Below, one piece after another: positions 10,853 through 50,002 of a stretch of 64,000 nucleotides of DNA. The first letter of the stretch is position 1. Each line of letters opens with the position of its first letter. The stretch is from a virus. The stretch spans positions 32,001 to 96,000 of IMG/VR virus record IMGVR_UViG_3300025018_000101, one strand, 5' to 3'. A program made the position numbers and the translations under genes. The notes beneath the pieces are model-generated. The model was not told the DNA's origin. It made no database searches and saw nothing but the letters and a program-made list of their open reading frames with translations.

Positions 10853-10879
10853 CTAAAGAAGGCCCCCGTGACGGGGGCC
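10853..10879 (-). terminator. Hairpin + TTCTTTAG terminator
   Basis: GGCCCCCG-TGA-CGGGGGCC with CTAAAG on the plus strand; downstream of the minus gene ending at 10930. Confidence 0.75.
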
Positions 10880-10929: not shown

Positions 10930-11904
10930 TCACGCCGGGGTGCAGCCGTGCAGCGCCAGCGAGGCTGCTTCCGCAGCCGCCTGGCCGCTGCCGTGGGGGT
11001 CGAAGACGACGACCCGTCGAGCGGAGCGCAATCGGTTGCACGCTCCGCAGGTGTTGCAGGACAGCCCGATGGTCTGGGCAGGGCACGCCAGCGCCGTGAC
11101 GCCCTCGGGCAGCAGTTCGGTCAGGGCCTCGAGCTGGTCGTGGGGCCACACGACGGCGCCGCCAGAGTCCAGCAGGTCGGAGTAGTTCACCACGATGCCC
11201 GCAGCCTCAAGGCGCGGCCGCCACGGCTCGAACTCGGCCACCTCGACATGCGTATAGGTCCAGGCCCATGCACCGGCCACGCGCCGTGTGCGGATGGGGG
11301 ACGGGTCAGCACCCGTCAGGAGGCCGAGGTGCTCGAGCCCTCGGAGGTAGACGGTGTCGAGCTCGCCGTCTCGGTAGAAGTCCCCAGAGGTGTGCAAGCG
11401 CACCAGAGACCGGGCCTTGCGCGCCATGAAGACGCCGACGACGACGGACGCCAGGGACGCGGCGACGGATTCTGTCGCCCTGACGCTGTGCATCCGGACG
11501 TTGCCGCCCGAAGCGTAGCAGCCCTTGAGGTAGGGGCAGGCGGGGCAGGTCGCCCCTACGGGCCGGTACGTGGATGGGCCGGCGACCTTGCCGTTCCCGG
11601 TCCCGACCGGATTCGCGGTCTCGCCGGCGAAGAGCCGGATGCCCCCGCGGAGCGTCGTTGCGCTCCCTCGGGCGGCGATGGTCTTGTCCATCAGGGCGTA
11701 GAGCCCGGTGGTCCACGCTCTCTCGAGCGGGCCCCAGGACGCCCAGGTGGGTCGCAGCGCGGGCAGGGCCAGCATGGCCTCCCCCATCATCTGCGTGAAG
11801 GCACCCGCGTCTCCGCGGGGCAGGAACTTCAGTTCAGGGCATCCCAGGTCGGGGTGCCCATCTTCGATCATACGGACCTCCATGGGGCGCGTCCACCGCA
11901 GCAT
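10930..11904 (-). CDS. Gp88/DUF7227-like Cys-rich (Fe-S, radical-SAM-like) protein
   Basis: Motifs NGKV, TCPACPYLKGCYA, VRLHTSGDF, AWTYTH, CPAQ...CNTCGAC, FDPHG. Confidence 0.65.
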   Translation of the reverse strand: MLRWTRPMEVRMIEDGHPDLGCPELKFLPRGDAGAFTQMMGEAMLALPALRPTWASWGPLERAWTTGLYALMDKTIAARGSATTLRGGIRLFAGETANPVGTGNGKVAGPSTYRPVGATCPACPYLKGCYASGGNVRMHSVRATESVAASLASVVVGVFMARKARSLVRLHTSGDFYRDGELDTVYLRGLEHLGLLTGADPSPIRTRRVAGAWAWTYTHVEVAEFEPWRPRLEAAGIVVNYSDLLDSGGAVVWPHDQLEALTELLPEGVTALACPAQTIGLSCNTCGACNRLRSARRVVVFDPHGSGQAAAEAASLALHGCTPA

Positions 11905-11923: not shown

Positions 11924-11931
11924 CTTATACC
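11924..11931 (-). promoter_or_regulatory. GGTATAAG putative phage-RNAP promoter
   Basis: Same motif as in the 28.6-30.4 kb cluster; about 20 nt upstream of ATG 11904. Confidence 0.6.
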
Positions 11932-25447: not shown

Positions 25448-25824
25448 GCAGCAACCACCACCGGTTCAACGAGTCCTTCAAGTGGTCCGAGCACATGGCG
25501 ACCGCCGGCTACAACGGCAACCCGTCCATTCCTCCGGACCACCCGCTGGCCAGGCTCTTCTCCGACGGGGCGCCCTCGGCTCCAGTCGGACCCGGGTTCG
25601 ACCCGAAGACGTCCAAGGTGCGCTTCCGGCGCTTCGACCTGGACGACGAGGAGGAGCGCGAGGACCTGGAGAACATCCTGACGGACTGCATGCGCGGCCA
25701 GGGCAAGTTCCTCGACAGCCAGACCCTACACACCACCCCTGACGGCCGTGCGATCGTCACGATCTGCTGGGTCGAGTGGGAGGTCCAAACGGCGAAACGG
25801 CCCAAGGGTCTGGACGACGTCTGA
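25444..25824 (+). CDS. Hypothetical protein
   Basis: ATGA overlap with portal; AGGAGG RBS. Confidence 0.7.
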   Translation: MSSNHHRFNESFKWSEHMATAGYNGNPSIPPDHPLARLFSDGAPSAPVGPGFDPKTSKVRFRRFDLDDEEEREDLENILTDCMRGQGKFLDSQTLHTTPDGRAIVTICWVEWEVQTAKRPKGLDDV

Positions 25825-25840
25825 GGAGAGGCAGGTCACG

Positions 25841-28261
25841 ATGGCACTGAAACCCGACGTCGTTCTTCAGCCGCACCAGGAGTCGGCACGCACGCGGTTT
25901 CGCGCCAAGCCTGGCTTGCTGATCAACCACGGCCTGGGCTCCGGCAAGACCTTGACGTCGATGGCGCTGGCGGAGGATGTCGGCGGCCGCGCCCTCGTCG
26001 TCGTGCCAGCGTCGCTGCAGGCGAACTACCGGGACCAGTTGCAGAAGTTCGTCACCGAGGACCGACACGGCGACTACGACATCGTCTCCTACGACAAGTT
26101 CAGGGCGGACCCCGAGTCCTATCTCGACAAGGAGCCGTCCGTCCTGATCGTCGATGAGGTCCACCGCCTGCGCAATCCGGGTAAGAACCGGGACGCCATC
26201 GAGATGGCCCGCAAGCGCATCCCGCGCATGGTAGGGATGACGGCCTCGCTCGCCTCGAACACGCCGCTCGAGTCCGTACCCCTGATCAACCTCGTCGCCG
26301 GCAAGAGCGTCATCTCGCAGGCTAAGTTCAAGAGGGATCACATCGGCGAGATCGAGGTGAAGCCTGGCCTCGCGGGCCGACTGCTCGGCGCCGAGTCGGG
26401 CTATGTGCCGGTCATCATCAACCGCAAGGGCCTGCACGACAAGCTCGCCCCCTTCGTCGACAGGTACACGGGCAGCGACGCGTACCGGAAGTCGCTGCCT
26501 GGTCGCGTCGACGAGGTCGTCGAAGTGCCCATGTCGGCCCACCAGAAGGACGTCTACGAGGGCATCATCAACACGAGCCCGGCGCTGGCGTACAAGATCC
26601 GGCAGAACCTCCCGCCGAGCAAGAAGGAGCTCAAGGACCTCAACGCCTTCCAGACCGCGGCGCGTCAGGTCATGAACGCCACCGAGCCGTACGTCGACGT
26701 CCGCGAGGGCCAGGACCTGCCCTCGATGTCGCCGAAGCTCCAGCGCGTCGCGGACGACCTGGCGGCACTGGCGAAGGACGACCCCAACTTCCGCGCCGTC
26801 GTCTACAGCAACTTCCTCGATGCGGGTACGCGCCCCGTGCTGCGCGCCACCGAGACGGCCTCCGGCCTGTACGAGGGCTCGGTGTCCCAGAAGGAGCGCC
26901 AGAGGGTCCTCGCGCGCTACCACTCCGGCGAGGCCCCCGTCCTCGGGCTCAGCCCGGCGGGTGGCGAGGGTCTCGACCTGAAGGGCACCAAGATGATGGC
27001 GGTGCTCGAGAGTCACTGGAACCCCGAGGTCACCAACCAGGCCATCGGCCGCGCCATCCGCTACAAGTCCCACGATCACCTCCCCGAGGACGAGCGCTCT
27101 GTCATCGTCCGCCAGTATCGGTCGGTCTACCCCGACTCGTGGCGCCACCGCATCTCAGGCCGCCCCACGTCCATGGACGAGTACATCGCCACTCGCGCCC
27201 AGGAGAAGGCCACCTTCAACGAGGACTTCATGAACGCACTCGACTCCAAGCCGCGCTCCCGCGGCGTCAAAGCCGCCTTCAAGGTCGCGGGCATCCCCGA
27301 GATGGCCGCGCGCCTGATGGACAGCGACCTCGTCAACTCCAACAGCCTCGGCTACTCCCTGCTCCGCGCCGCCCCCGGCGCCGCCCTCAGCGTCGCCAGC
27401 CTCGGCCTCGGAGCTGGCGTGGCCAGCAGTGAGGACCCCAACGCCCCGCCCCAGTACCGAGCCCAGGGCATGCTCGGCGCGGGCATCGGCATGGGACTGG
27501 CGGGCGCCTTCGCCCCCGCCGTGCTCAAGTCCATCGCGCTCCGTCCAAAGGGACTGATGCTGAACGCAGAGGGCATCGCGGCCGCCCCGCTCGGCGCCCG
27601 GGGCCGGGCGCTCCACCTGGACCCGGCGTTCCTCGACGCGCCGATTCACCCGTCGCACCCCCTGTCGTGGCGCGGGATGCCCTCGGTGGCGGAAGAGCTG
27701 GAGATGAACGGTGGCCGGACCGACAGGCTCCCTGTGACCGGGAACACGGTGCTCGACCTCATGGGCCGGCTCCAGGGTGACCGGCCTCACATCGACGGCC
27801 GCCTGCCCTGGACGGGCGAGAACGCCTTCGACGGCGTCAGGCCGTGGGAGGGGGAGCGCCTCCCTGCCGGCGCTCTGGGCGCAGACCTGGGCGACTACGG
27901 CGCGGAGATCCCTGTGCTCGGCACGTACGGCGACAGGCGCACGATGTCCGCCGCCTACAACACCTCGCGGCGCCAGACCGAAGCGGCCGTCGACGCCGCA
28001 CGAGCCGCCATCGCGAACGCTCCCGAGGGCGCTGACCTGGCCTCGCTCCAGGACGCCCTGGACGAGGCGGAGAGCTCCCACACCCCAGGGGTCTGGTCCT
28101 CGGACGCTACGAAGGCCGTCATGGAGACCAACCCAGAGACGGCCCTCGGCGTGGGCGGCCAACTCGCGAGCCTGGCTGCCAGTGGCCTCGCAGGCATCGG
28201 CGGCTGGTTCGGCGGCAAGGCCCTCGGCCGAGCCCGGGCTGAGCGAGGCGAAGGGACCTAA
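25841..28261 (+). CDS. SNF2-like SF2 helicase fused to a Gly-rich/hydrophobic C-terminal extension
   Basis: LQPHQ, HGLGSGKT, VDEVH, GGEGLDLK, QAIGRAIRYKSH; then KAAFKVAG and glycine-zipper-like segments. Confidence 0.85.
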   Translation: MALKPDVVLQPHQESARTRFRAKPGLLINHGLGSGKTLTSMALAEDVGGRALVVVPASLQANYRDQLQKFVTEDRHGDYDIVSYDKFRADPESYLDKEPSVLIVDEVHRLRNPGKNRDAIEMARKRIPRMVGMTASLASNTPLESVPLINLVAGKSVISQAKFKRDHIGEIEVKPGLAGRLLGAESGYVPVIINRKGLHDKLAPFVDRYTGSDAYRKSLPGRVDEVVEVPMSAHQKDVYEGIINTSPALAYKIRQNLPPSKKELKDLNAFQTAARQVMNATEPYVDVREGQDLPSMSPKLQRVADDLAALAKDDPNFRAVVYSNFLDAGTRPVLRATETASGLYEGSVSQKERQRVLARYHSGEAPVLGLSPAGGEGLDLKGTKMMAVLESHWNPEVTNQAIGRAIRYKSHDHLPEDERSVIVRQYRSVYPDSWRHRISGRPTSMDEYIATRAQEKATFNEDFMNALDSKPRSRGVKAAFKVAGIPEMAARLMDSDLVNSNSLGYSLLRAAPGAALSVASLGLGAGVASSEDPNAPPQYRAQGMLGAGIGMGLAGAFAPAVLKSIALRPKGLMLNAEGIAAAPLGARGRALHLDPAFLDAPIHPSHPLSWRGMPSVAEELEMNGGRTDRLPVTGNTVLDLMGRLQGDRPHIDGRLPWTGENAFDGVRPWEGERLPAGALGADLGDYGAEIPVLGTYGDRRTMSAAYNTSRRQTEAAVDAARAAIANAPEGADLASLQDALDEAESSHTPGVWSSDATKAVMETNPETALGVGGQLASLAASGLAGIGGWFGGKALGRARAERGEGT

Positions 28262-28310
28262 AGAAAAGCACCCCCACCCCCGGAGGGGCGGGGGTGGGGG
28301 TGCTTTTCTT
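28258..28310. terminator. Bidirectional terminator (TTTAG tail on minus strand)
   Basis: 22-bp inverted repeat AAGAAAAGCACCCCCACCCCCG / CGGGGGTGGGGGTGCTTTTCTT. Confidence 0.9.
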
Positions 28311-28311
28311 T

Positions 28312-28533
28312 CTAGACCGGCGCGGGCGCCGGCGTCGTCGTCGTCGTCGCCGGGCCGGCGGGGCCGGCGGGGGCGGCTGCGGCTGCGGCCGCAGCCGCAA
28401 CCACCGCCCCCGCCGCCGCCGCCGTCAGGCGACGACGCCGACGCCTGACGGCGACGACGGCGACGGTGGTTGCGGCGACGACGGCGACGGTGGTTGCGGC
28501 GGCTACCGCGACGACTACAGTTCGCTTTTCCAT
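28312..28533 (-). CDS. Small Ala/Thr/Val-rich membrane-like protein
   Basis: GGAGG RBS after a TTCG hairpin; repeated VAATTVAV, then poly-Arg. Confidence 0.55.
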   Translation of the reverse strand: MEKRTVVVAVAAATTVAVVAATTVAVVAVRRRRRRLTAAAAGAVVAAAAAAAAAPAGPAGPATTTTTPAPAPV

Positions 28534-28673
28534 GGTGTCCTCCTGTCCCCGAAGGGACATACGGGCGCCGCCTGGAATAGCGACGCCCCACCTTTCACCC
28601 TGTCCAGCACCCGACGACATGTCGAGCGCCTCCAGGGCGGACTTCCAGACCATCTAGGTCCTTCAGTCAAACT

Positions 28674-28681
28674 CTTATGCC
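28674..28681 (-). promoter_or_regulatory. GGCATAAG putative phage promoter
   Basis: Recurrent motif, followed by AG. Confidence 0.65.
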
Positions 28682-28812
28682 AGTTTTGTCCCGCCATTTG
28701 ACACTTTTCAGTGCCATCTAAAAGAGAGTCACCCATCACACGCTCCGCGGACGACGCGGGCAGTGGTTGTTTGGGTGCGCTCTTCTGCCTTGGGGTGTCG
28801 GCGCCAGCCCCT

Positions 28813-28899
28813 CTACGCCACGCGTGTCGTCCACGCGTCTTGTAGTCCCTGCCATTTTTCTAAGCGCCAGCAGGCGGCGCGTGGCATGCGTTTCATCAT
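28813..28899 (-). CDS. Possible 28-aa micropeptide MMKRMPRAACWRLEKWQGLQDAWTTRVA
   Basis: AGGAGG directly upstream of tandem ATGs. Confidence 0.3.
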   Translation of the reverse strand: MMKRMPRAACWRLEKWQGLQDAWTTRVA

Positions 28900-29179
28900 G
28901 CCTCCTGTTCTGATGCTCGTTGCCTTCATGTCGGTGGCATCATCGCCGACAGGGGGAGCCGTACGCCGGCAGCGGTCCAGTCATGACGCTCGGCATGGCT
29001 GGGGCTGGGTGGTTATTTGTTACCGCGCCGGCCACCGGGCGCGTGGAGTCAGGCTCATGGCCCCTCCTGTGACGCGCCCCCGGCAGGGGGAGCGCGGTAA
29101 CTTCGCTGTCTGCCTCGGCCTGCCCCGAGGTGGGTCTTGTTTACGCCTGGGCGCCGACCCTATGTCGTCCAGGACCCAG

Positions 29180-29240
29180 GCACTACTTCGGGAATCGAAC
29201 CCGACTCGGAGCGAACAGCTCCGGCGCTCCAGCGCAGTGC
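29180..29240 (-). ncRNA. Minimal tRNA-like element (GUU in anticodon position, reduced D-arm)
   Basis: 7-bp acceptor GCACTGC/GTAGTGC; CGGAG-CTGTTCG-CTCCG arm; T-arm TCGGG-TTCGATT-CCCGA. Confidence 0.55.
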
Positions 29241-29295
29241 GTAATGTGGGGGTATAGCAGAGGACATGCTATAGTCTACACCCCTCACACAATCT

Positions 29296-29314
29296 CTTAT
29301 GCCTACTTTATACC
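29296..29314 (-). promoter_or_regulatory. Tandem GGTATAAA / GGCATAAG putative phage promoters
   Basis: Motifs at 29307-14 and 29296-303. Confidence 0.6.
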
Positions 29315-29327
29315 TCATTATTGCAAT

Positions 29328-29353
29328 CTAAAAGAGGGCGCCACTGCGCCCTC
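29328..29353 (-). terminator. Hairpin + TTTTAG
   Basis: GAGGGCGC-4 nt-GCGCCCTC followed by TTTTAG. Confidence 0.8.
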
Positions 29354-29373
29354 ATGAACCCGCGCGGAGAGCC

Positions 29374-29607
29374 CTATGTGGGCTCCGCCTGCGCGGCCTC
29401 GGCGGCCGCGGACACCAGGACGGCGTCCTCCGGCGCGCCGGGCTCGACGCGCGCCCACCCGCGCGTCGCCGAGGCGGCGCGCAGGGCCGACCGCTGTCGG
29501 TGCTGCTCGGCCGCAGCACCGATGACGATCCCCGTCCCGAGGGCGCCGAGAACCGCGGCGACGCCCCCTACCACGAGGGCCACTACCGAACCGATCGGTC
29601 TATCCAT
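29374..29607 (-). CDS. Small single-TM protein
   Basis: AGGAG RBS, ATG 29607; hydrophobic SVVALVVGGVAAVLGALGTGIVIGAAA. Confidence 0.65.
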   Translation of the reverse strand: MDRPIGSVVALVVGGVAAVLGALGTGIVIGAAAEQHRQRSALRAASATRGWARVEPGAPEDAVLVSAAAEAAQAEPT

Positions 29608-29661
29608 ACCCGGCCCTCCTTCGGCCAGGTGCGACCGCGGCATGCGGTCACTGTTCAGAGG

Positions 29662-29669
29662 CTTGTACC
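29662..29669 (-). promoter_or_regulatory. GGTACAAG putative phage promoter (variant)
   Basis: One mismatch to GGTATAAG; upstream of 29607. Confidence 0.5.
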
Positions 29670-29727
29670 AACACGAGGGGTGTTGCCGACGGCCGCATCA
29701 GGGCCTTGTTCCGTGAGGCCGCCTCAT

Positions 29728-29765
29728 CTAAAGAAACGCCCCCCCGGAGGAGAGGGTGGCGTTTC
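29728..29765 (-). terminator. Hairpin + TTTAG
   Basis: GAAACGCC...GGCGTTTC followed by TTTAG. Confidence 0.75.
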
Positions 29766-30026
29766 CCCCGCCGCCCCGTCGGGCGACAGTGGGACCGAGC
29801 GTCCAGCGCTCGCTTCGAGACAGGGCCTCTCTTCCCTGCCTCGGGCCTCCCTGAGGCCCAACACCCCCTCCGTCGAGGGGGTCGGCCCTGCCACGTCTGA
29901 CAGGGCCGGACGACCGTCGCCATCGAGAAGACGCACCCCGCGAGCTCGTCCCGGGGAAGGAGATTCCACCGACCTCCTGGGGTGCGTCTTGTCGACGGCG
30001 GCGAGACTAATTGCCTCGCTCATACT
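29766..30026 (-). ncRNA. Putative structured ncRNA (hairpin array)
   Basis: About 8 consecutive stem-loops, including a ~21-bp stem (29918-39 with 29979-30000) and three GACG-loop hairpins, lying between a promoter motif and a terminator. Confidence 0.55.
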
Positions 30027-30034
30027 CTTATACC
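30027..30034 (-). promoter_or_regulatory. GGTATAAG putative phage promoter
   Basis: Recurrent motif, followed by AG. Confidence 0.65.
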
Positions 30035-30063
30035 TGTCCAGATGCGATGATTGGCACTACCTG

Positions 30064-30101
30064 CTAAAAGAGAGCGACGGGGCAGAAGCCCCGCCGCTCT
30101 C
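30064..30101 (-). terminator. Hairpin + TTTTAG
   Basis: GAGAGCGGCGGGGC-TTCT-GCCCCGTCGCTCTC-TTTTAG. Confidence 0.85.
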
Positions 30102-30107
30102 CTCCGC

Positions 30108-30290
30108 CTACGCCGCCCGCCTCCTGACGGCGACGTAGGCGCCCACGGCCCTTTGAGGCACGTGGGGCCCGCCCGCTCGGGGCGGGCAATACCGGCGCCA
30201 GACGAGTCTGGCGCCGGCGAATTTCTGGGCGGCGTCGAGGGTGCTGAACACCGCGACGCCGCCCGGGGCCTGGACGCAGTACAGAATCAT
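30108..30290 (-). CDS. Small hypothetical protein (MILYCVQAPGG...)
   Basis: AAGGAGG RBS before ATG 30290. Confidence 0.55.
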   Translation of the reverse strand: MILYCVQAPGGVAVFSTLDAAQKFAGARLVWRRYCPPRAGGPHVPQRAVGAYVAVRRRAA

Positions 30291-30362
30291 GACGGCCTCC
30301 TTGGCCTCCGGCGAGTTCGACAGCCCCATGCTGTCGTCCCATCTCGCCGGGTGTGTCAAAGC

Positions 30363-30370
30363 CTTATGCC
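30363..30370 (-). promoter_or_regulatory. GGCATAAG putative phage promoter
   Basis: Recurrent motif upstream of 30290. Confidence 0.6.
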
Positions 30371-30372
30371 AC

Positions 30373-30401
30373 TCGACTGAGACAGCGGCAGGACGTACAG
30401 T
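30373..30401 (+). promoter_or_regulatory. sigma70-like promoter of the RNAP/head operon
   Basis: TCGACT-17 nt-TACAGT. Confidence 0.5.
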
Positions 30402-30437
30402 AAGCGAGGAGCGCGTTCTTGCCACGGGAGATCATCG

Positions 30438-33400
30438 ATGGGCGACTGGGGATTCACGAAGCTGGCCGAAGAGGTGCGACGGCTTGTCCAGGAGACGCAG
30501 GCCGAGACTCCCGAGGGGGAGGGGCCGGCGTTCCACGGTAAGATCAGCGACATCAAGGGGCTGCGCTCCGTGCTGGCCCCGGCGTCCGAGCGACGCGATG
30601 CCATCCGCAAGCAGGCCGTGGCCTCGATGTACAACGTCTTCCCGATCAAGGGGACGAACTACGACGTCACCGTGCACGACGTCAGGGTCGACGCGGCCGA
30701 CTACACCCTCGAGGACATGAAGGAGGCGGTGCTGGCCCGCAAGTCGCTGACCGAGCCCATCAAGGCCACGGTCCGCATCACCGACAAGGCCTCCGGCAGG
30801 GTACTGGACGAGCAGAAGAAGACGCTCGGCCACCTGCCGTTCATGACGGACCACCACACCTTCATCCTCGACGGGAACCCGTACGCCCTCTCGAGTCAGT
30901 TGCGAGTCAAGCCGGGGGTGTACACCCGGATGCGCAGCAACGGGGACCTCGAGAGCGCGTTCAACCTGGGGCGCGGGGCGAACTTCCGCCTGTTCATGGA
31001 CCCGATGCGCGGCGTCTTCCACATCCAGTACGGGGCGACCAAGACGCCCCTGTACCCGATCCTGGTCGCACTCGGCGTGCAGGAGTCGGTCATCGCGCAG
31101 GCGTGGGGCAAGGACCTGGCGGACGCCAACCGCGCGGCATCCCGCGGCAAGGAGCGCCTCGCCCTGGCGACGCTCTACGCCAAGGTCGTCCCGATGTCGA
31201 AGCGCTCGAAGGCCCCCAGCGAGGCTGACATGGTGGCGGCCATCCGGGAGGCGTATGGCAACACCGTGCTCGACCCGGCGGTGACCAAGGCCACGCTGTC
31301 CATGGCGGTCTCCTCGGTGACGCCCCTGGCCCTGCTGGCCGCCAGCAAGAAGATCCTCGGCGTCTACAACGAGACCGAGCAGGAGGACGACCGCGACGAC
31401 CTCCAGTTCAAGACGCTGCACACCCCGGACACCTTCGTCAAGGAGCGCATCGAGAAGGATGCCGCTCGGGGTGTCCTGCTGCGGAGCCGCTTCAAGCTCA
31501 ACCGCACCGCCGACCCGAAGGTGAAGGACGTCCTGCCTTCGGCGCCGTTCTCCGGAGCGCTTCGGAGCCTCATCACCCAGAGCTCCCTGGCGCAGGCCCC
31601 CAGCCAGATCAACCCTGTCGAGCTCATCGATGGCGCGGTCAAGGTCACCAGCCTCGGCGAGGGCGGCATCTCCTCGCTGCGCTCGGTCCCCGAGTCCACG
31701 AGGTCGCAGCACGCCAGTCACCTCGGCATGCTCGATCCGGTGCGCACTGCAGAGTGCTACGACGACCAGACGGAGGTCTACACGCGCGCGGGGTGGGTGC
31801 GCTGGCCTGACGTCGATGAGAACGCGGAGTTCGCCTGCCTCATCGACGGCCGCCTGGCGTTCCATCCGCCCCTGCGCCTGATCTCCGCGCCCTACGACGG
31901 TGAACTGCTGTGCGTGACGACGAGTCGGCGCGTCGGGTACGCGGTTACGCCCAACCACCGCCTCCACGTTCGGCCCACGGACCTGCGCGGCAATGCGTCG
32001 TGGCGCATTGTCACCGCGGACGTAGCACACACGCGCGCGGGGTGGCAGTACCAGATCGGACACGAGCCGCTGGAGGGGGACGGGACTACGGAGTTCCACC
32101 TTCCGGCCGTCACGCAGACGCTGGTCTCGGATGACGCCGCCGGGAGTCGGGCTACGCTCGGCACACGCCGCCTGGCGACACAGGCAGCGCCGCCGATCCC
32201 CCTCGAAGTGTGGGCGGAGTTCCTCGGGTGGTACATCTCCGGGGGCAACACGGTGTACAAAAGTGCGGGGATGGATTCTCGGTACGCGGTCAGGATCACG
32301 CAGCGTGAGAGCGCCAACCCCGCCGAGTGCTCGCGGATTGAGGCCCTGCTCGACGCCCTCCCGTGGACGTGGTCGAAGTACGCCGACGCGTACTCCATTC
32401 CTTCCAAGCAGCTCGCTGAGTACTGCCGCCGCTTCGGCCGGTCGGTGGACAAGTTCCTCCCGTCAGAAGTCTTCACCTGGCCGGTCGCTGCCCGTGAGCG
32501 CCTCCTGTCGGCGCTCATGGCCGGTGACGGGCGCACGTACTCCAAGCGCAAGGTCGGGCACAGTTACACGGAGGCGGTATACAGTACCGTGAGTCCCCAG
32601 CTCGCACGGGATGTCGAGGCGCTCGCCATAGGCCTCGGGAGCGCCGTGAGCATCACGACGCAAGTCGACAACCGGGAGGAGCGGTACCGGGACGTCTACG
32701 ACGTCAGGGTCATCCAGGCGAAGGTAGCACCGGTCCGGACACGCAGGCACATGACGCGGCCTGACGGGAGTCGCGGCTACGTGGCGAACGCGGCGTTCAC
32801 GACGCTCGACTATCACGGCACGGTGTACTGCGCTACGGTACCGGGAGGGCTCCTGTACGTCCGCCGGGGTACGCCCAGCGGCCACTGGAACGGGAACTCG
32901 GGCGCGGTCGGCGTCGACCTGCGGTCGGCGTCCTACCTGCACGTCGACGAGCGCGGCAACATGTACACGCCGCTCATCAACGTCCGCACGAAGAAGGTGG
33001 AGCTCGTCTCGGCCGCGACGATGAGCAAGAGCAAGGTCGCGTTCGAGGGGACGGACCTGAAGAAGACGCGGGTCCCGGCGATGGACGGCGGGCAGGTCCG
33101 CGACGTCCTGTCGAAGGACGTCGCCTTCATGCTGCCGTCCACCCTGTCGAAGCACTCCCCGTCGAGCTCGCTCGTGCCGATGATGGGGGGCTCCCAGGGC
33201 AACCGCCTCATCATGGGCAGCAAGCATCAGACCCAGGCGGTGCCCCTGAAGCACCGCCAGGCGCCGCTCGTCCAGGTGGCCGCCGGTGATGGCACGTCCA
33301 TGGAGGCCAAGTTCGCCGAGTGGCACATCCCCAAGGCCCTCGAGGCGGGCACCGTCCAGAAGATCGACATGAGCCGCGGCCGCATCATCATCGCGCCCAA

Positions 33401-36149
33401 GAGCGGCGGAGACCCCGTGGCCTACGAGTTCGCCAACAACTACCCACTGGCCAGCAAGACCCGACTCCACCATGACGTCACGCTCAAGCCCGGCGATACG
33501 GTGACGAAGGGCCAGGTCCTGGCCGACAGCAACTTCACCCAGGGCGGGGTGATGGCCAACGGCCGGAACCTCCACACGGCCTACATGGCCTACCACGGCC
33601 TGAACAGCAACGACGCCTTCGTCATCTCCGAGAGCGCCTCGGAACTCCTGACGTCCGAGCACATGTACCGAGAGACCCTGAGCCTGCAGCGCGGGGTCGA
33701 GACGAGCGTCGAGATCCACAAGCGCCACTTCGGCTCCCGCTTCCCCGCCACCGCCTATGGCAACCTGGACGCGGACGGGGTGGTCAAGAGCGGCACCGTC
33801 ATCAAGACCGGCGACCTCATCGTCGCCGCCGTGGTCAAGCGGACGCCCTCGGCCGAGGACGCCATGCTCGGCCGCCTGAACAAGTCCCTCGTCAAGCCCT
33901 ACGGCGACGCATCGATCACCTGGACCCACGGCGGCGACGGCAGGGTCACTGAGGTCCACAAGTCGAAGAGCTCGGTCACCGTTCTGGTGTATACTGAGGA
34001 AAAGATGAAGGTCGGGGACAAGCTCTCTGGCAGGTTCGGCAACAAGGGGGTCGTCTCGAAGATCATCCCCGACGACCAGATGCCACGGGATGAGTCCGGC
34101 AGGCCTATCGAGTTGATCGCGACGTCCGCGGGCGTGGTCTCGCGCATCAACCCTGCCCAGGTCCTCGAGCGGGCGTATGGCAAGGTGGCGCTCAAGACGG
34201 GGCAGCCGATCCTGGTCGACCAGTACCCGAAGCACAGCATGGTGGAGCACGCCACCGCGCTGCTGAAGGAGCACGGCGTCAAGGACAAGGAGACGCTCTA
34301 CGACCCCATCTCGGGCAGGTCGGTGCCAGGCATCGCGGTCGGGCCGACGTTCCAGATGAAGATGTTCAAGTCCACGGACACGAACTTCTCGACGCGGTCC
34401 ACGGGGTCGTACGACGTCAACGAGCAGCCAACCAAGGGCGGCGAGGCGGGCGCCAAGAGCATCGGCCGTATGGACTTTTACGCCCTGGTGGGTCACGGCG
34501 CGACGAACCTGCTCAAGGAGAGCGCGTCGATCAAGGGCCAGCGCAACGACGAGTACTGGAAGCGGGTCCAGATGGGACTGCCCGAGGGCCCCGTGAAGAC
34601 CCCCTTCGCCTGGAGCAAGTTCCAGTCGATGTTGACTGGCGCCGGCATCAACGTGACGAAGAAGGGCAACACCCTGACCCTGGCTCCGCTGACGGACAAG
34701 GACGTGATGGCGCTGGCGCCACGAGCCATCCAGAACGCTGGTGTCGTCAAGCCGAAGGTGACTCGCGAGGGCACGCAGGTGGTCCCGGAGACGGGTGGCC
34801 TCTTCGACCCGGTGGCGACAGGCGGCGTGTCCGGAACGAAGTGGAGCCGCATCGACCTCGTCGAGCCTGTGGTGAACCCCATCTTCGAGGACACGGTCAA
34901 GACGCTGACCGGGATGGGAGGCAAGGAGTTTGACGCCTTCCAGCACGGAGCTGGCGGCCACGAGATGCGCAAGCGCTTGAACGCCATCGATCTGGACGAC
35001 AAGAGCGCGGAGCTGGAGGCGTCCATCAGGAGGAACCTGCGCGGGGGTCCCGGCAGGGAGGCGCTGGTCGACCGCGACGTCAAGACGCTCAAGTCGGTCC
35101 GGGCGCTGAAGAAGATGGGCATGCAGGCCGGGGATGCCTACGTCATCTCCACGGTGCCGGTCGTGCCTCCTGTCATGCGCGGGGTGGTGTCGGGGACGGG
35201 CGGGGCGGTGATGGTGTCGGACGCGAACTTCCTCTACAAGGACCTGCTGCTGACCAACAACGCCATCCGTGACATGCCGCAGGAGCTCCGGGCCATCGAG
35301 GACATGAGCGACCATCGCCGCAACCTGTCCGCCGCAGTCGCGGCCGTCGTGGGCACCGGCGACCCCATCAACGACAAGACGAAGGCGCGGGCCGTGCGCG
35401 GGTTCATGCAGCAGGCCGCCGGCATCCGGAGTCCGAAAGAGGGCTACTTCCAGAGCCGGCTCATCAAGCGGCGCCAGGACCTGTCGGGTCGCGGCACCAT
35501 CGCTCCGGACCCGAGCCTGGGCATTGACTCGGTCGGTCTGCCGGAAGAGATGATGTGGACGCAGTTCAAGCCGTTCGTCATCAAGAACCTGGTCAAGCGG
35601 GGCTACTCAACCAACGACGCCCTCCGCATGGTCGACGAGAAGCACCCGACGGCGAAGATCGAGCTCCTTGAGGAGGCCAAGCGGCGCCCCATCCTGATGA
35701 ACCGGGCCCCGACGCTGCACCGCTACAACATGGTCGCGGCCTACGCCACGCCGGTCGACGGCAAGACCATCTTCATCAGCCCCTTCTACGAGAAGTTGGG
35801 CAACGCGGACTACGATGGCGACGCCATGCAGGTCCACGTCCCGGTCACGGACAAGGGCATCGCGGACGCCAGGCGCATGACCATCAGCGCCCTGGCCATG
35901 CACGACGGGAGCAAAGGCGTCGCCATCGCAACTCCGCAGCACGAGGCGATCATCGGCACGTACATGGCGACCAAGCCGATGCTGCCCGGCCCTGCGCGCG
36001 CCTTCAAGACGCGTGGCGATGCGCTGGCCGCCTACGGGCGGGGCGAGATCAAGATCAACTCCCCCATCACGGTGGATAAGACAACCCAGACGGCCATCGA
36101 GGCCCCGGTGACCGTCTTCCCCGCCGCGGGGACCGGCAAAGCGCACTGA
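30438..36149 (+). CDS. rpoBC: Phage RNA polymerase: beta fused to N-terminal beta', intein-containing
   Basis: beta motifs SQLRVKPGVY, GNRLIMGSKHQTQAVPL, GDKLSGRFGNKGVVS; beta' motifs GGLFD, DLSGRGTI, NRAPTLHR, catalytic NADYDGD. Confidence 0.93.
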   Translation: MGDWGFTKLAEEVRRLVQETQAETPEGEGPAFHGKISDIKGLRSVLAPASERRDAIRKQAVASMYNVFPIKGTNYDVTVHDVRVDAADYTLEDMKEAVLARKSLTEPIKATVRITDKASGRVLDEQKKTLGHLPFMTDHHTFILDGNPYALSSQLRVKPGVYTRMRSNGDLESAFNLGRGANFRLFMDPMRGVFHIQYGATKTPLYPILVALGVQESVIAQAWGKDLADANRAASRGKERLALATLYAKVVPMSKRSKAPSEADMVAAIREAYGNTVLDPAVTKATLSMAVSSVTPLALLAASKKILGVYNETEQEDDRDDLQFKTLHTPDTFVKERIEKDAARGVLLRSRFKLNRTADPKVKDVLPSAPFSGALRSLITQSSLAQAPSQINPVELIDGAVKVTSLGEGGISSLRSVPESTRSQHASHLGMLDPVRTAECYDDQTEVYTRAGWVRWPDVDENAEFACLIDGRLAFHPPLRLISAPYDGELLCVTTSRRVGYAVTPNHRLHVRPTDLRGNASWRIVTADVAHTRAGWQYQIGHEPLEGDGTTEFHLPAVTQTLVSDDAAGSRATLGTRRLATQAAPPIPLEVWAEFLGWYISGGNTVYKSAGMDSRYAVRITQRESANPAECSRIEALLDALPWTWSKYADAYSIPSKQLAEYCRRFGRSVDKFLPSEVFTWPVAARERLLSALMAGDGRTYSKRKVGHSYTEAVYSTVSPQLARDVEALAIGLGSAVSITTQVDNREERYRDVYDVRVIQAKVAPVRTRRHMTRPDGSRGYVANAAFTTLDYHGTVYCATVPGGLLYVRRGTPSGHWNGNSGAVGVDLRSASYLHVDERGNMYTPLINVRTKKVELVSAATMSKSKVAFEGTDLKKTRVPAMDGGQVRDVLSKDVAFMLPSTLSKHSPSSSLVPMMGGSQGNRLIMGSKHQTQAVPLKHRQAPLVQVAAGDGTSMEAKFAEWHIPKALEAGTVQKIDMSRGRIIIAPKSGGDPVAYEFANNYPLASKTRLHHDVTLKPGDTVTKGQVLADSNFTQGGVMANGRNLHTAYMAYHGLNSNDAFVISESASELLTSEHMYRETLSLQRGVETSVEIHKRHFGSRFPATAYGNLDADGVVKSGTVIKTGDLIVAAVVKRTPSAEDAMLGRLNKSLVKPYGDASITWTHGGDGRVTEVHKSKSSVTVLVYTEEKMKVGDKLSGRFGNKGVVSKIIPDDQMPRDESGRPIELIATSAGVVSRINPAQVLERAYGKVALKTGQPILVDQYPKHSMVEHATALLKEHGVKDKETLYDPISGRSVPGIAVGPTFQMKMFKSTDTNFSTRSTGSYDVNEQPTKGGEAGAKSIGRMDFYALVGHGATNLLKESASIKGQRNDEYWKRVQMGLPEGPVKTPFAWSKFQSMLTGAGINVTKKGNTLTLAPLTDKDVMALAPRAIQNAGVVKPKVTREGTQVVPETGGLFDPVATGGVSGTKWSRIDLVEPVVNPIFEDTVKTLTGMGGKEFDAFQHGAGGHEMRKRLNAIDLDDKSAELEASIRRNLRGGPGREALVDRDVKTLKSVRALKKMGMQAGDAYVISTVPVVPPVMRGVVSGTGGAVMVSDANFLYKDLLLTNNAIRDMPQELRAIEDMSDHRRNLSAAVAAVVGTGDPINDKTKARAVRGFMQQAAGIRSPKEGYFQSRLIKRRQDLSGRGTIAPDPSLGIDSVGLPEEMMWTQFKPFVIKNLVKRGYSTNDALRMVDEKHPTAKIELLEEAKRRPILMNRAPTLHRYNMVAAYATPVDGKTIFISPFYEKLGNADYDGDAMQVHVPVTDKGIADARRMTISALAMHDGSKGVAIATPQHEAIIGTYMATKPMLPGPARAFKTRGDALAAYGRGEIKINSPITVDKTTQTAIEAPVTVFPAAGTGKAH
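31755..32897 (+). mobile_element. Intein (381 aa) with LAGLIDADG-type endonuclease domain
   Basis: Starts CYDDQTEVYT; block B VTPNHRL; FLGWYISGG and LMAGDG; VYCATVP...WNGN followed by Ser. Removal restores DPVRTAE-SGAVG, equivalent to the beta TPEG motif. Confidence 0.9.
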
Positions 36150-36164: not shown

Positions 36165-37040
36165 ATGAACGGTGTCAACGACTGGATCGCACGCGTGGAG
36201 GCCGGCCGCCAGGCGCACCCCTCGGTGCTCATGAACCGGCCTCAGGGTCGCCGCGAGGACCCCGTCACATGGGGGGCCTCAACGCACTACGGCGACAACG
36301 CCCTGGGACGCAACGGCATGGGCGCGCGCAAGCAGGCGGCCGCGGAGGAAGCGGAGGAACCGAGCCGCTGGGCCGGCGCCTGGCGCGGGCTCAAGGGCGG
36401 CCTCCGTGGCGGCGCTCTCGCGGGGGGGCTCGCTGGCGCGGGCTCGGGTCTCGTCCACAGCATCGCCGAAGGAGACGCGGGGAGTGCTCCCGCCTACGCA
36501 CTGTTCGGTGGCCTCGGCAGCGGCATCGTTGGGGGTCTCGCAGGCATGGGATACGGGGCCATCCTGGGCGCGGGCTACCCGGACCCTGCCGCGGAGAAGG
36601 ACCTGCCGTGGTACAGGAGCCCCGCGGTCGCGGGTGCCGTGCTTGGGACGGGCATCGGAACCGCTCGGGGCGTGAAAGGGCTGCTCGACAAGAAGCATGA
36701 CTGGGGGGCCGCTGCCGAGGGCGCAGCACTGTCCGGCGCGATCGCCGCCGGCGCTGGCTTGGGCGTCAGTAAGGCCAACGAGCGCTACCTCGCCCAGCAG
36801 GCGGAGAAGTCTGCCTTCGTGGGCGCGGTCGCCCGCAAGCTCGTCTCCAGCCTCGGCGGGAGGGCCCTGGGGACTGCGGGCGCTCAGGGGGCCGCTGCCG
36901 TCGGCGAGGGCCTGGCGACCAAGGCGGCCCCGAGCCTGCTCCGCAAAGCCACCGCCCCCGTGCTCTCGGCCGCGTCGCTCGGCTCGTCCATGGCGACGAT
37001 GCGCCCGACGGCTGCCACCTTCGCTCCGGTGAAGTACTGA
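36165..37040 (+). CDS. Glycine-zipper, K-x-A-containing putative internal virion protein
   Basis: GGAGG RBS; repeated GxxxG hydrophobic segments; KQAA, KSAF. Confidence 0.7.
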   Translation: MNGVNDWIARVEAGRQAHPSVLMNRPQGRREDPVTWGASTHYGDNALGRNGMGARKQAAAEEAEEPSRWAGAWRGLKGGLRGGALAGGLAGAGSGLVHSIAEGDAGSAPAYALFGGLGSGIVGGLAGMGYGAILGAGYPDPAAEKDLPWYRSPAVAGAVLGTGIGTARGVKGLLDKKHDWGAAAEGAALSGAIAAGAGLGVSKANERYLAQQAEKSAFVGAVARKLVSSLGGRALGTAGAQGAAAVGEGLATKAAPSLLRKATAPVLSAASLGSSMATMRPTAATFAPVKY

Positions 37041-38863
37041 TGGCCACTCGCGACAACAACAAGCACACTACGCTCGGCCGTCTGCTCATCAACGACTCGC
37101 TGCCGCCGGAGCTCCGTACGGATGAGCAGCTCGGCAAGAAACAGATCAACCGCATCCTGTCCAGCGTGGCCAGGAACACGCCCGAGCAGTACGGCTCGGT
37201 CGCCCAGAACGTGAAGCGGTCGGGCGACTACGTTGCCACGCTGGCCGGGCTCAGCGTCGGCCTTGAGGACGTCGCCCCCCAGCGTGCACGACGCGACCCG
37301 ATCGTCAAAGACGCCCTCGGCCGCTTGCGCAAGGCCACGACGGACGCCCAACGGAGAGTCATCCTGTCGGAGGCGCAGGGCAAGATGATGAAGATCACGC
37401 CCGACCACCCATCGGACATGGCGCTGATGGCAGCCGCCGGCGGCCGCGGCTCCACGGCGCAGTTGATGCGCACGGTGGCCGCACCTGTCGCGGCCGCGGA
37501 CAAGAACGGGGCGCCCCTGCCGTGGCTGATTCAGCGGTCGTACTCCGAGGGGCTCAGACCGGATGAGTCCTGGGTGGCCGGGATCGAATCCCGCAACCTC
37601 GCCATCCAGACGAAGGAGTCCGTGCAGGAGCCCGGCGCGTTCGGCAAGGTCTTGATCGCCAACATGAGCGACATGGTCATCTCGTCGGAAGACTGCGGTA
37701 CCCGCAACGGCACCATCATGCACGTCTCCGACCCGCAGCTCGTCGACCGCGTCCTGGCCGCGGCCGCCGGTCCTGTTGCCGCCGGGACCATCGTCACCGC
37801 GCAGGTCGTCCGAGACCTGCGCAAGGCCGACGTCAAGGACGTCAAGGCCAGGACCCCCCTGACGTGCGAGATGGGCTCCGGCGTGTGCTCGGTATGTATG
37901 GGCGCCGACGAGTGGGGCAAATTGCCCCGTCTGAACACGAACGTCGGTGTCCGCGCCGCCCAGGCCATGAGCGAGCCCCTGACGCAGTTCGCCCTCTCCG
38001 CCAAGCACGGGGCGGGGACACTGAGTGGCGCCGGTAGGCCCTCCATGCAGGGCCTGACGGGCTTGAAGAACTTCCTCGACTTCCCGAAGTCGTTCTCTGA
38101 CCGAGCGATTCTGACGAGCCGGACCGGCGTGGTCACCCGCGTGGCCAAAGCCCCCCAGGGCGGGTGGTACGTCGACGTCGACCGCGTCGAGCACTACCTG
38201 TCGCCGCGGACGCCTCCGACGGTTCATCAGGGGCAGCACGTGGACGTCGGCGACGTACTGTCCGAGGGCGTCCCGACGCCAGACGACGTCGTACGGCTCA
38301 AGGATATGGGGGCAGGCCGGCAGCACGTCGCCGACGTCGTGCACGGCATCTACGCCGCCCAGGGGGCGAACCTTGACAAACGCCACATGGAGCTGCTCGC
38401 CAAGAGCCACCTGAACTGGGTGCGCGTAGTCGACGACCCCGACGGCGACCTGCTGCCGGGCGAGATCGTGCCTTACTCCTCGACGATGAGCCGCTACGGC
38501 GAGAGCAACACCGAGATGGCCGTGCAGGCCGCCACGGGCAAGGTCCTGTCCGTGCCAGCGCTTCAGTACACGGCAGGCACCACCCTGACGCCGCAGATCG
38601 TGGCGTCGCTCAAGGGTGGCGGTGTGTCGAAAGTGCGTGTATACAATGGGAACCTCAGGACTCGTCCTGTCGTCAAGTCCCTTACGCGGAGCCCGCTGCT
38701 CGATGCGCGCTGGATGAGGCGGCTCGGGCACCGGTACCTGAAGAAGTCTCTTGTCGAGGGAGCGGCTGCTGGCGATGAATCATCGATCCACGACACAGAC
38801 CCTATCGCCGCCTACGCTTACGGGGCGGAGTTCGGGGACAATCCCTCTGGCGTTGGCTATTGA
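37040..38863 (+). CDS. rpoC: RNA polymerase beta' C-terminal subunit
   Basis: TTLGRLLIN, GGRGS, SYSEGL, bridge-helix region ending EDCGT, Zn site C...CSVC, trigger loop AAQAMSEPLTQFALSAKHGAG. Confidence 0.9.
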   Translation: MATRDNNKHTTLGRLLINDSLPPELRTDEQLGKKQINRILSSVARNTPEQYGSVAQNVKRSGDYVATLAGLSVGLEDVAPQRARRDPIVKDALGRLRKATTDAQRRVILSEAQGKMMKITPDHPSDMALMAAAGGRGSTAQLMRTVAAPVAAADKNGAPLPWLIQRSYSEGLRPDESWVAGIESRNLAIQTKESVQEPGAFGKVLIANMSDMVISSEDCGTRNGTIMHVSDPQLVDRVLAAAAGPVAAGTIVTAQVVRDLRKADVKDVKARTPLTCEMGSGVCSVCMGADEWGKLPRLNTNVGVRAAQAMSEPLTQFALSAKHGAGTLSGAGRPSMQGLTGLKNFLDFPKSFSDRAILTSRTGVVTRVAKAPQGGWYVDVDRVEHYLSPRTPPTVHQGQHVDVGDVLSEGVPTPDDVVRLKDMGAGRQHVADVVHGIYAAQGANLDKRHMELLAKSHLNWVRVVDDPDGDLLPGEIVPYSSTMSRYGESNTEMAVQAATGKVLSVPALQYTAGTTLTPQIVASLKGGGVSKVRVYNGNLRTRPVVKSLTRSPLLDARWMRRLGHRYLKKSLVEGAAAGDESSIHDTDPIAAYAYGAEFGDNPSGVGY

Positions 38864-48327: not shown

Positions 48328-49086
48328 ATGACACAGCCCTTGTACCTGACCCGACTGCTCCAGAAGACCGCCGCCCGCAAGGAAGAGCCGGCGTGGGACC
48401 CCGCCATGGAGGTCGACCTGACGCCGGCCGAGCAGGCGCGGTTTGACAGGGCCGCCGCCGAAGAGGCGCGGCGCGGCGGCTACGCCGGCGGCCTCATCGG
48501 CGCAGGTGCTGGCGCGCTGATGGGCGGTGCCGGCGCCGCCGCCTGGGGCCGCTCGAGGGGTCACGGCCTCGGCCGTGTCGTGGGCGAGGGAGCGCTCGGA
48601 GCGCTTGGCGGCGCAGCGGCTGGGTTCTTCGAAGGAGACGTAGCGGGTGGAGCGGTCGGCGGGCTCTCCATGTACGCGGACCGGGACTCAAAGCCGAACT
48701 TGCGCGACCAGTACGGATTTGGAGCGGCCCTCCCTGCGGGCTTCGCCGGGGGTCTCATGGGCGCTGGCGCCGGTGCTGTTGGTGCGCACGAACTGTTACG
48801 GGGCGCGCCGGCGCGGATCCTGGTGCCGGCTACGCTGGTGGGCGGCGGTCTGGGCGCCCTGGCTGGCGGAGCCTTGAGCGGGCTCTCCGGGTACGGCGCG
48901 GGCTACGGGCTGGGTCTGGTGCGCGAGGGTATGGACGCCGCCACGGGGTCGAGGCCGCCAGCCAACCCGCTCGAGGGCATCGACACGGTCGCCAGGGAGC
49001 GGGCCGTCGAGGAGTACCTCGCCAACGGAGGCAAGGAGGCTTCGGCCGCCCCCGTCTATCTCAATCGCCTGCTGCGGAGGCTGTAG
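48328..49086 (+). CDS. Glycine-zipper protein, copy 1
   Basis: AAGGAG RBS; KTAA near the N-terminus and KEAS near the C-terminus. Confidence 0.75.
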   Translation: MTQPLYLTRLLQKTAARKEEPAWDPAMEVDLTPAEQARFDRAAAEEARRGGYAGGLIGAGAGALMGGAGAAAWGRSRGHGLGRVVGEGALGALGGAAAGFFEGDVAGGAVGGLSMYADRDSKPNLRDQYGFGAALPAGFAGGLMGAGAGAVGAHELLRGAPARILVPATLVGGGLGALAGGALSGLSGYGAGYGLGLVREGMDAATGSRPPANPLEGIDTVARERAVEEYLANGGKEASAAPVYLNRLLRRL

Positions 49087-49243: not shown

Positions 49244-50002
49244 ATGACACAGCCCTTGTACCTGACCCGACTGCTCCAGAAGACCGCCGCCCGCAAGGAA
49301 GAGCCGGCGTGGGACCCCGCCATGGAGGTCGACCTGACGCCGGCCGAGCAGGCGCGGTTTGACAGGGCCGCCGCCGAAGAGGCGCGGCGCGGCGGCTACG
49401 CCGGCGGCCTCATCGGCGCAGGTGCTGGCGCGCTGATGGGCGGTGCCGGCGCCGCCGCCTGGGGCCGCTCGAGGGGTCACGGCCTCGGCCGTGTCGTGGG
49501 CGAGGGAGCGCTCGGAGCGCTTGGCGGCGCAGCGGCTGGGTTCTTCGAAGGAGACGTAGCGGGTGGAGCGGTCGGCGGGCTCTCCATGTACGCGGACCGG
49601 GACTCAAAGCCGAACTTGCGCGACCAGTACGGATTTGGAGCGGCCCTCCCTGCGGGCTTCGCCGGGGGTCTCATGGGCGCTGGCGCCGGTGCTGTTGGTG
49701 CGCACGAACTGTTACGGGGCGCGCCGGCGCGGATCCTGGTGCCGGCTACGCTGGTGGGCGGCGGTCTGGGCGCCCTGGCTGGCGGAGCCTTGAGCGGGCT
49801 CTCCGGGTACGGCGCGGGCTACGGGCTGGGTCTGGTGCGCGAGGGTATGGACGCCGCCACGGGGTCGAGGCCGCCAGCCAACCCGCTCGAGGGCATCGAC
49901 ACGGTCGCCAGGGAGCGGGCCGTCGAGGAGTACCTCGCCAACGGAGGCAAGGAGGCTTCGGCCGCCCCCGTCTATCTCAATCGCCTGCTGCGGAGGCTGT
50001 AG
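49244..50002 (+). CDS. Glycine-zipper protein, copy 2
   Basis: Identical translation to copy 1. Confidence 0.7.
   Translation: MTQPLYLTRLLQKTAARKEEPAWDPAMEVDLTPAEQARFDRAAAEEARRGGYAGGLIGAGAGALMGGAGAAAWGRSRGHGLGRVVGEGALGALGGAAAGFFEGDVAGGAVGGLSMYADRDSKPNLRDQYGFGAALPAGFAGGLMGAGAGAVGAHELLRGAPARILVPATLVGGGLGALAGGALSGLSGYGAGYGLGLVREGMDAATGSRPPANPLEGIDTVARERAVEEYLANGGKEASAAPVYLNRLLRRL

Follow-up and report, generated by a model that had tools for sequence, protein, structure and literature searches.

Five tandem antisense cassettes in the helicase-polymerase gap of a GC-rich tailed phage, with a promoter word that is probably private to the phage

The early promoters of jumbo phages such as phiKZ and AR9 carry a conserved AT-rich word of about 10 nt near position -10, and are read by a multisubunit RNA polymerase of the virion (PMC7598289). 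T4-type phages have so-called PeSL cassettes in their hyperplastic regions, where each small orphan gene, itself non-essential, is bracketed by a strong early promoter and a stem-loop; the stem-loops insulate the units and protect neighbouring late virion genes, and the repeated junctions invite recombination (Arbiol et al. 2010, PMC2839356). Here, we consider a locus that has features of both. It lies in a window of 64,000 nt, i.e., bases 32001-96000 of the 155,236-bp viral contig IMGVR_UViG_3300025018_000101, where five minus-strand units follow one another between a helicase gene and an RNA polymerase gene, each opening at the word GGYAYAAG and closing at a hairpin followed by TTTAG. These units are probably insulated single-gene cassettes that carry early genes, and their promoter, private to the phage, is probably read by the polymerase and the sigma factor of the phage itself. 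Coordinates are window positions, unless they are marked as genome positions.

As in phiKZ and AR9, the word can be found bioinformatically upstream of the units, it is unlike the host consensus, and the phage has a multisubunit polymerase of its own. The polymerases are of different lineages, however: phiKZ and AR9 have split beta/beta' sets, whereas here beta is fused to the N-terminal half of beta' and is much closer to the bacterial enzyme. Furthermore, no sigma-70-family factor is known to be used by phiKZ or AR9, whereas the present genome, with 155 kb and one polymerase set, encodes a sigma-70-like factor. The likeness to PeSL cassettes lies in the stem-loops, in the small orphan genes, and in terminator tails and hairpins that are common to several units. 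The PeSL promoter is a perfect host sigma-70 consensus interleaved with the stem-loop, whereas the word considered here is not of the sigma-70 type (G at -7, no TTGACA box), the hairpin stands 25 to 59 nt upstream as a separate terminator, and two of the five cargos are non-coding RNAs. The combination of sigma-70 consensus early promoter and stem-loop that defines a PeSL element is thus not found.

The morons of lambdoid and other tailed phages, as reported by Juhala, Hendrix and colleagues, are said to be promoter-gene-terminator units within a structural operon. Like these, the present units stand independently between genes of a structural operon, and their cargo is unrelated to the neighbours. 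Morons typically have host promoters and are expressed from the prophage, whereas here there are five tandem antisense units with what appears to be a private promoter, in a large phage that is apparently virulent (integrase and repressor genes were not searched for). The promoter itself may be compared with the bacterial extended -10 element TGnTATAAT and with the T4 late promoters, TATAAATA, which are used with gp55. The word shares with these a single element centred on -10, little or no -35 region and, as predicted here, an A at -11 and a start 5 to 7 nt downstream. It differs from them in its last base, which is G rather than T, in having GG rather than TGn before the hexamer, and in its presumed reader, a phage sigma-70-family protein rather than the host sigma factor or gp55.

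The contig has a GC content of 69% and the gene content of a tailed phage, with a large terminase, a family A DNA polymerase, a primase-type protein and the SNF2 helicase. Both genes that flank the array are on the plus strand, the five units fill the entire 2,176-bp gap between them, and the units, on the minus strand, are antisense to their neighbours in the structural module. On the minus strand of the gap, promoter word, cargo and terminator follow each other in this order five times without exception (Table 1). A preliminary description, made from the sequence alone, had placed words at 30370, 30034, 29669, 29303 and 28681, a further copy at 29314, and a TTTAG at the end of each unit. The five words are all present, and each unit closes with YTTTAG, with its G at 30064, 29728, 29328, 28718 and 28258; the five words and the five tails, consisting of hairpin, T-run and AG, alternate as strictly as had been claimed. 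The copy at 29314 is where it was placed, but it reads GGTATAAA and is one mismatch off the exact pattern. The extension to GGYATAAGAG in three copies is correct, and so is the copy at 11931 ahead of a Gp88-like gene: a gene that gives Pfam matches to DUF7227 and, weakly, to GP88 follows this copy at a distance of 27 nt and is closed by a hairpin and CTTTAG that end at 10853. By our own reading of the scans, the genome would hold nine complete single-gene units from word to TTTAG, five of them in the gap.

Table 1. Signals and cargos of the five units, with further features of the window
Feature	Position	Strand	Remarks
Unit 1, promoter word GGCATAAG	30363..30370	minus	26.7 bits; predicted start ~30357, the G of the conserved T-G, because of the conserved T(+12) G(+13)
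Unit 1, cargo: 60-aa orphan protein (MILYCVQ...)	30108..30290	minus	AAGGAGG 6 nt before ATG
Unit 1, terminator	30064..30110	minus	long GC-rich hairpin, then CTCTTTTAG
Unit 2, promoter word GGTATAAG(AG)	30027..30034	minus	24.5 bits; predicted start ~30021
Unit 2, cargo: non-coding RNA body	29757..30021	minus	about eight hairpins back to back
Unit 2, terminator	29728..29756	minus	hairpin, then CGTTTCTTTAG
Unit 3, promoter word GGTACAAG	29662..29669	minus	21.4 bits; predicted start ~29656
Unit 3, cargo: 77-aa orphan protein	29374..29607	minus	N-terminal membrane-type helix; AAGGAGGG before ATG
Unit 3, terminator	29328..29353	minus	8-bp GC hairpin, then TTTTAG
Unit 4, promoter GGCATAAG(AG) at 29296-29303, degenerate GGTATAAA ahead at 29307-29314	29296..29314	minus	23.5 bits; in an AT-rich stretch; predicted start ~29290
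Unit 4, cargo: non-coding RNA body	28776..29290	minus	no coding frame
Unit 4, terminator	28718..28775	minus	imperfect long hairpin, then CTCTCTTTTAG
Unit 5, promoter word GGCATAAG(AG)	28674..28681	minus	28.2 bits, top site of the genome; CAAA 15 nt upstream; predicted start ~28668
Unit 5, cargo: 73-aa low-complexity protein	28312..28533	minus	CAGGAGGA before ATG
Unit 5, terminator	28258..28310	minus	GC hairpin of at least 12 bp, then CTTTTCTTTAG
Further promoter word GGTATAAG	11924..11931	minus	27 nt before DUF7227/GP88-like gene 10930-11904
SNF2 helicase gene	25748-28261	plus	
RNA polymerase beta fused to first half of beta'	30438-36149	plus	1903 aa; LAGLIDADG insert inside
RNA polymerase beta', C-terminal half	37040-38863		separate gene

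The preliminary description had also judged the strict alternation of such AT-rich words unlikely by chance and had proposed a genome-wide count together with a measure of positional enrichment. GGYAYAAG occurs ten times in the window, always on the minus strand, when 2.8 copies are expected, and none of 100 shuffled sequences reaches ten; in the whole genome the minus strand has 15 copies and the plus strand one. When a profile is built from the intergenic copies, 12 sites score above 14.6 bits. All of these are intergenic, each is aimed at a unit on its own strand, and five are found within 2.1 kb of this gap, while the sites with the next lower scores are all within genes. The last base of the word is G in all 12 sites, and the extended consensus that the profile gives for this genome is GGYAYAAG-NNNN-T-G. 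Both the promoter family and the terminator-tail family are recovered independently by a blind repeat finder. A chance origin of the word is excluded.

Two further observations concern the words and units of this genome. A variant box, ATGAGGTAWAAA, occurs twice, at about 136330-136345 in genome coordinates (L128), before a gene for 84 amino acids at 136316, and at 29307-29314 in the window, just upstream of the promoter of unit 4; this variant may have a weaker activity than the word or be regulated in another way. Outside the window, on the minus strand at genome 103582-103763 (L126), a sixth stand-alone unit extends over about 180 nt from GGCATAAG to a strong hairpin with CTTTAG.

The polymerase has hundreds of metagenomic relatives, and the closest cultured one belongs to Salmonella phage Arash. 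Its nearest relatives, P0002, P0003, P0005 and P0006, are 53-55% identical over the full length (alignment A2); their genomes are outside the set of 113 related phage loci that was fetched for comparison, which includes L050, the contig of P0004. A metagenome scan gave no relative closer than 49%, and a single-protein scan of viral contigs gave no match. At the DNA level, no match was found with blastn in a phage collection, and local blastn and tblastn searches with the gap and its three open reading frames found none in the fetched loci or in the remaining genome.

The word is conserved in position and sequence across related phages with 38 to 69% GC. In 46 of 80 viral loci, with 38 to 64% GC, it is found on the minus strand at most about 175 nt upstream of the start of the RNA polymerase match, and the width of this GC span means that the hosts probably differ. 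In the 113 loci, TGGTAHAAG occurs 88 times on the minus strand versus 8 times on the plus strand, and variants that end in A, C or T have no minus-strand excess. Several positions that were not selected by the search are also conserved, i.e., T at -4, -2 and -1, A at +8 and +9, and T followed by a purine at +12/+13, counted from the word. Together with the word these give the pattern TT-GGTAHAAG-AA-NN-T-R, and an A-rich box at -18/-17 is conserved as well, seen as a weak yCAAA box in the logo. Two of the loci, L054 and L050, have two tandem mini units each, with small membrane-type open reading frames, in the same place and divergent from the polymerase gene as here.

Arash has GGTATAAG 30 times on its minus strand and once on the other; with the last base left free, 30 copies end in G, 2 in T, 4 in A and 4 in C. 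The first 50 kb contain seven sites, each of them 33 to 48 nt before an annotated minus-strand gene start. At site 69576 a Shine-Dalgarno box begins 6 nt after the word, so that the start of transcription cannot lie much further downstream. The arm with the seven sites carries nucleotide-metabolism genes, small unknown genes and tRNAs, and the plus strand carries the terminase, the structural genes and the sigma gene. At Arash 46653 and 61264 (L084, L085), the word comes directly after tRNA genes, which suggests that tRNA clusters are punctuated in the same way; in one case the tRNA 3' end leads into TCTTTTAG, with GGTATAAG next.

Four of the five closing hairpins are clear intrinsic terminators, with a GC hairpin directly before the T-run, and that of unit 4 is weaker and imperfect. 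The T-runs contain only three to four T, as is usual in high-GC DNA. On the minus strand, AG follows in 9 of 10 intergenic cases of hairpin plus T-run, versus 1 of 12 on the plus strand (Fisher p 3e-4), and its occurrence after the T-run is far above what base composition gives (binomial p 3e-11). In Arash, the same AG is found at 8 of 15 strict minus-strand terminators versus 2 of 11 on the plus strand. That TTTAG is a piece of the next promoter is ruled out by its distance to the next word, which varies from 0 to 64 nt, and TTTAG as a clade-wide terminator code was rejected because AG is without enrichment in most other relatives.

Read on the plus strand, the TTA in the tail of unit 5 is the TAA at which the helicase gene stops. 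Such an overlap with the TAA stop of a convergent plus-strand gene is seen for this tail and for four minus-strand tails elsewhere, which would make these hairpins bidirectional. The terminators of units 2 (29728-29756) and 5 (28258-28292) are related in sequence, with about 88% identity over 34 nt (repeat families D8/D9), and the tail CTCTTTTAGATKGCA is common to units 3 (29322-29336) and 4 (28712-28726; repeat family D5). As in PeSL elements, the borders of the cassettes thus seem to have undergone duplication or recombination. The plus strand, too, has two terminator-like hairpins with T-runs, at 29108-29142 inside unit 4 and at about 30190-30224 inside unit 1. Antisense transcripts that read through from the helicase gene would end there, short of the polymerase gene.

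To see how the units might work, consider a single cassette. It would open at (T)GGYAYAAG, used as a sigma-type extended -10 element in which -12 is T, -11 an invariant A and -7 a G in place of T, and with the weak yCAAA box about 17 nt upstream of the core. Transcription would start 5 to 6 nt after the word, at the conserved pyrimidine-purine step (T-G), and would end at an intrinsic terminator composed of a GC hairpin, a short T-run and, in all five units, AG. The reader would most likely be the phage polymerase, made up of the beta/beta'-N fusion and the beta'-C chain, together with a phage sigma-70-family factor. The genes would be early ones, fired by the injected holoenzyme before any phage protein is synthesized, because polymerase and sigma proteins are found in the Arash virion. 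The sequence itself shows the motif, its orientation and conservation, its alternation with the terminators, its last base that is unlike sigma-70, and which units are coding; we infer where transcription starts, which polymerase reads the word and that the genes are early.

A pattern with A at the position of the flipped A(-11) fits a sigma-type -10 element with a start about 6 nt downstream. The polarity and the predicted start at a pyrimidine-purine step would suit a promoter of the sigma family as well, with the reservation that the search pattern itself had fixed the A. The preliminary description had suggested a short promoter for a phage RNA polymerase, at or near the start site. The word does behave as a promoter, in that it is intergenic, on the strand of its own unit and often right after a terminator, and the phage does encode a polymerase; a position upstream of the start now seems the better fit, and the phage polymerase is the putative reader. 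A T7-type or phiKZ-late-type promoter that overlaps the start does not appear to fit. As to the sigma factor, the candidate is an 834-aa protein (genome 20045-22549) whose C-terminal 284 residues align to regions 2.3 to 3.1 of SigA from several bacteria. In Arash virions, mass spectrometry has detected a beta-type chain, which is the most abundant protein by spectra, a beta' chain and sigma, and the authors suggested a role of the virion polymerase and sigma in early transcription (PMC10585845). No paper was found in a search of the literature on promoters of Arash-type phages.

Other readers of the word have to be considered. When a sigma-70 holoenzyme recognizes a -10 element, it binds the flipped T(-7) and A(-11), and T(-7) is among the two most important bases of the element (PMC7598289). 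If the units had ordinary host promoters of the extended -10 type, read by the primary sigma factor of the host, one would account for the fact that TGGTATAAG fits TGnTATAAT at every specified position but the last, and for the ordinary intrinsic terminators and ribosome-binding sites of the units. The last base is the difficulty: it is G in 12 of 12 good sites here, and in Arash 30 times against 2 for T, so that the housekeeping sigma factor of the host is an unlikely reader. A consensus scan of 27000-32000 gave no sigma-70-type site, and no TTGACA-like -35 box is found 16 to 18 nt upstream of the words. The word also recurs at 38 to 69% GC, while this genome elsewhere uses a host-like TTGCGC-17-TATAAT, and we regard host promoters as quite improbable. 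A more plausible variant, though still an unlikely one, is that the phage sigma factor redirects the RNA polymerase core of the host to the word, and that the phage polymerase serves another class of genes. Phage sigma factors that reprogramme the host core are well known (T4 gp55, SPO1 gp28), and T4 late promoters are, like the element here, a single box centred on -10; the sigma-type geometry of the element and the alignment of the phage factor to regions 2 and 3 of bacterial SigA would also be explained. Against this, the phage polymerase is itself of the bacterial type and could bind the same sigma factor, and the presence of sigma and polymerase together in the Arash virion suggests that they act jointly (PMC10585845). 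The conservation of the word across very different GC contents, and probably hosts, is also easier to understand if both partners travel with the phage.

Still a little less probable than host promoters is a role of the word as a binding site for a phage regulator or as a signal at the RNA level, e.g., a processing site in read-through transcripts. The word is always in untranslated DNA, and an RNA-level role is conceivable to that extent, but it has no dyad symmetry and a strict strand polarity, and at the seven Arash sites its distance to the gene start is short and fixed (33 to 48 nt). Since the word usually comes after a terminator, little upstream RNA should reach it, and five terminator-bounded units would be left without any promoter. 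We therefore prefer a promoter read by the phage polymerase with the phage sigma factor, and several points weigh against that preference. The sigma match is weak (E 5e-4), and the Pfam sigma-70 region 3 match is just below the cut-off. A virion polymerase is documented in Arash only, the polymerase of which is about 34% identical to the present one. The genome has only 12 good sites, about half of the copies have the upstream CAAA box, and a minus-strand replication operon is without the word, which means that the word is not the only non-structural promoter class and that at least one more exists. The AG after the T-run is, to judge from the other relatives, not a polymerase signal of the whole clade. 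Promoter function and start site, finally, are predictions from sequence logic.

Near-consensus host-type promoter sequence is found at genome 105296-105400 (L126, outside the window), where TTGCGC-17-TATAAT stands on the minus strand right after a hairpin with CTTTAG and before a 433-aa gene; host-like and putative private promoters therefore coexist on the same strand.

The cargo of the units would be specific to the lineage: of the three small proteins two are of membrane type and one is soluble, and the other two units carry structured non-coding RNAs. The GC content by codon position is 0.66/0.58/0.85 in unit 1 and 0.77/0.60/0.83 in unit 3, as in real genes of this phage, and both have strong ribosome-binding sites of the AAGGAGG type. 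The preliminary description had listed open reading frames in units 1, 3 and 5, that of unit 3 with a transmembrane segment. The first is borne out by its coding-type third-position GC and its ribosome-binding site, and an in-frame form of 73 amino acids is possible from 30329. The second has a best 19-aa hydropathy window of 2.42. The frame in unit 5 is less clear-cut, with a good ribosome-binding site and a hydrophobic N-terminus (hydropathy 2.28) on the one hand and a weak codon bias on the other. Its product, which like that of unit 3 has a membrane-type helix, contains a stretch RRRRRR and an Ala/Pro-rich tail, and two exact 24-nt tandem repeats at 28449-28496 (repeat family D2) encode a repeated segment of the VAVVAATT type. 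No family matches were found for units 1 and 3 in Pfam and PHROGs, or for unit 5 in Pfam, and in a search of 5.8 billion proteins the sole match of the unit 1 protein was a 99% identical copy of itself on a 684-nt contig.

Unit 2 has no coding frame, and its GC content is flat at 0.65-0.70 over the three codon positions. The structured RNA that had been proposed for this unit is well supported: the 295-nt transcript including the terminator (29728-30022) folds with a minimum free energy of -193.5 kcal/mol, compared with -144.9 for shuffled sequences (z -9.5). On the plus strand the fold is 27 kcal/mol less stable, an indication that the RNA comes from the minus strand. Within this RNA, C-G closes a GACG or AGAC loop in three of the hairpins, and GGA recurs in several loops. 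It has no homolog in the fetched loci, and a search of Rfam gave nothing at gathering thresholds and only noise at E up to 10. Unit 4, folded with its terminator (28718-29291, 574 nt), gives z -3.9. The tRNA-like region proposed for this unit turned out to be a degenerate look-alike: ARAGORN finds no tRNA in default mode, and only the relaxed and mitochondrial modes call a tRNA-Asn(GTT)-like element without D arm at about 29179-29246. The element scores 18.9 bits with the Rfam tRNA-Sec model, far below the gathering score of 47. A tRNA gene would have a cloverleaf with D arm, a 7-nt anticodon loop with a purine at position 37 and a score over the detector thresholds, and the element does not qualify as one.

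For the clade as a whole, which comprises hundreds of contigs, Arash and several Vibrio phages, a wider proposal can be made more tentatively, as one that falls somewhat short of being probable. The early programme would be run throughout by a virion-delivered, sigma-dependent RNA polymerase of the bacterial type on a private TTGGTAHAAG, with G for T at -7. In the present lineage there would also be a private terminator code (hairpin, three to four U, AG), and the island would be an early take-over locus, with two large structured RNAs and three micro-proteins, within the late structural module. If this is true, the word gives a handle on an unstudied transcription system, in which a bacterial-type polymerase and its own sigma factor travel in the virion. 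To our knowledge, all well-studied sigma-70-family factors bind a flipped-out T(-7), and a member of the family that demands G there would be a natural experiment in -10 recognition. The pair of promoter and terminator would then be a compact, host-orthogonal expression cassette that works in DNA with 69% GC, and the box would be a means of annotating early genes and non-coding RNAs in hundreds of phage genomes from metagenomes. Since Arash is cultured on Salmonella, the system can be tested at the bench.

Some minor observations concern other signals and genes. Upstream of the polymerase gene, (C)TATACT(T) occurs on the plus strand 10-65 nt before the start of the RNA polymerase match in L005, L030, L032, L036, L040, L053, L059 and about 25 other loci. 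An ATG often comes 5 to 9 nt later, so that a host-like -10 in a leaderless-type arrangement stands back to back with the minus-strand GGTAHAAG. This box was not seen before the polymerase gene in Arash or in the present genome, and TATACT as a clade-wide late promoter was rejected, being enriched upstream of the polymerase in one subclade only. In the present genome there is a TACAGT with a spacer of 36 nt before the polymerase ATG; as a second promoter word TACAGT was unconvincing, with 18 copies of which 8 are intergenic. Finally, two 252-aa open reading frames on the plus strand, at 48328-49086 and 49244-50002, have identical starts, with at least 75 nt the same around both. The two GGTACAAG matches at this pair are coincidences on the coding strand, and the pair itself is a recent tandem duplication in the head region.

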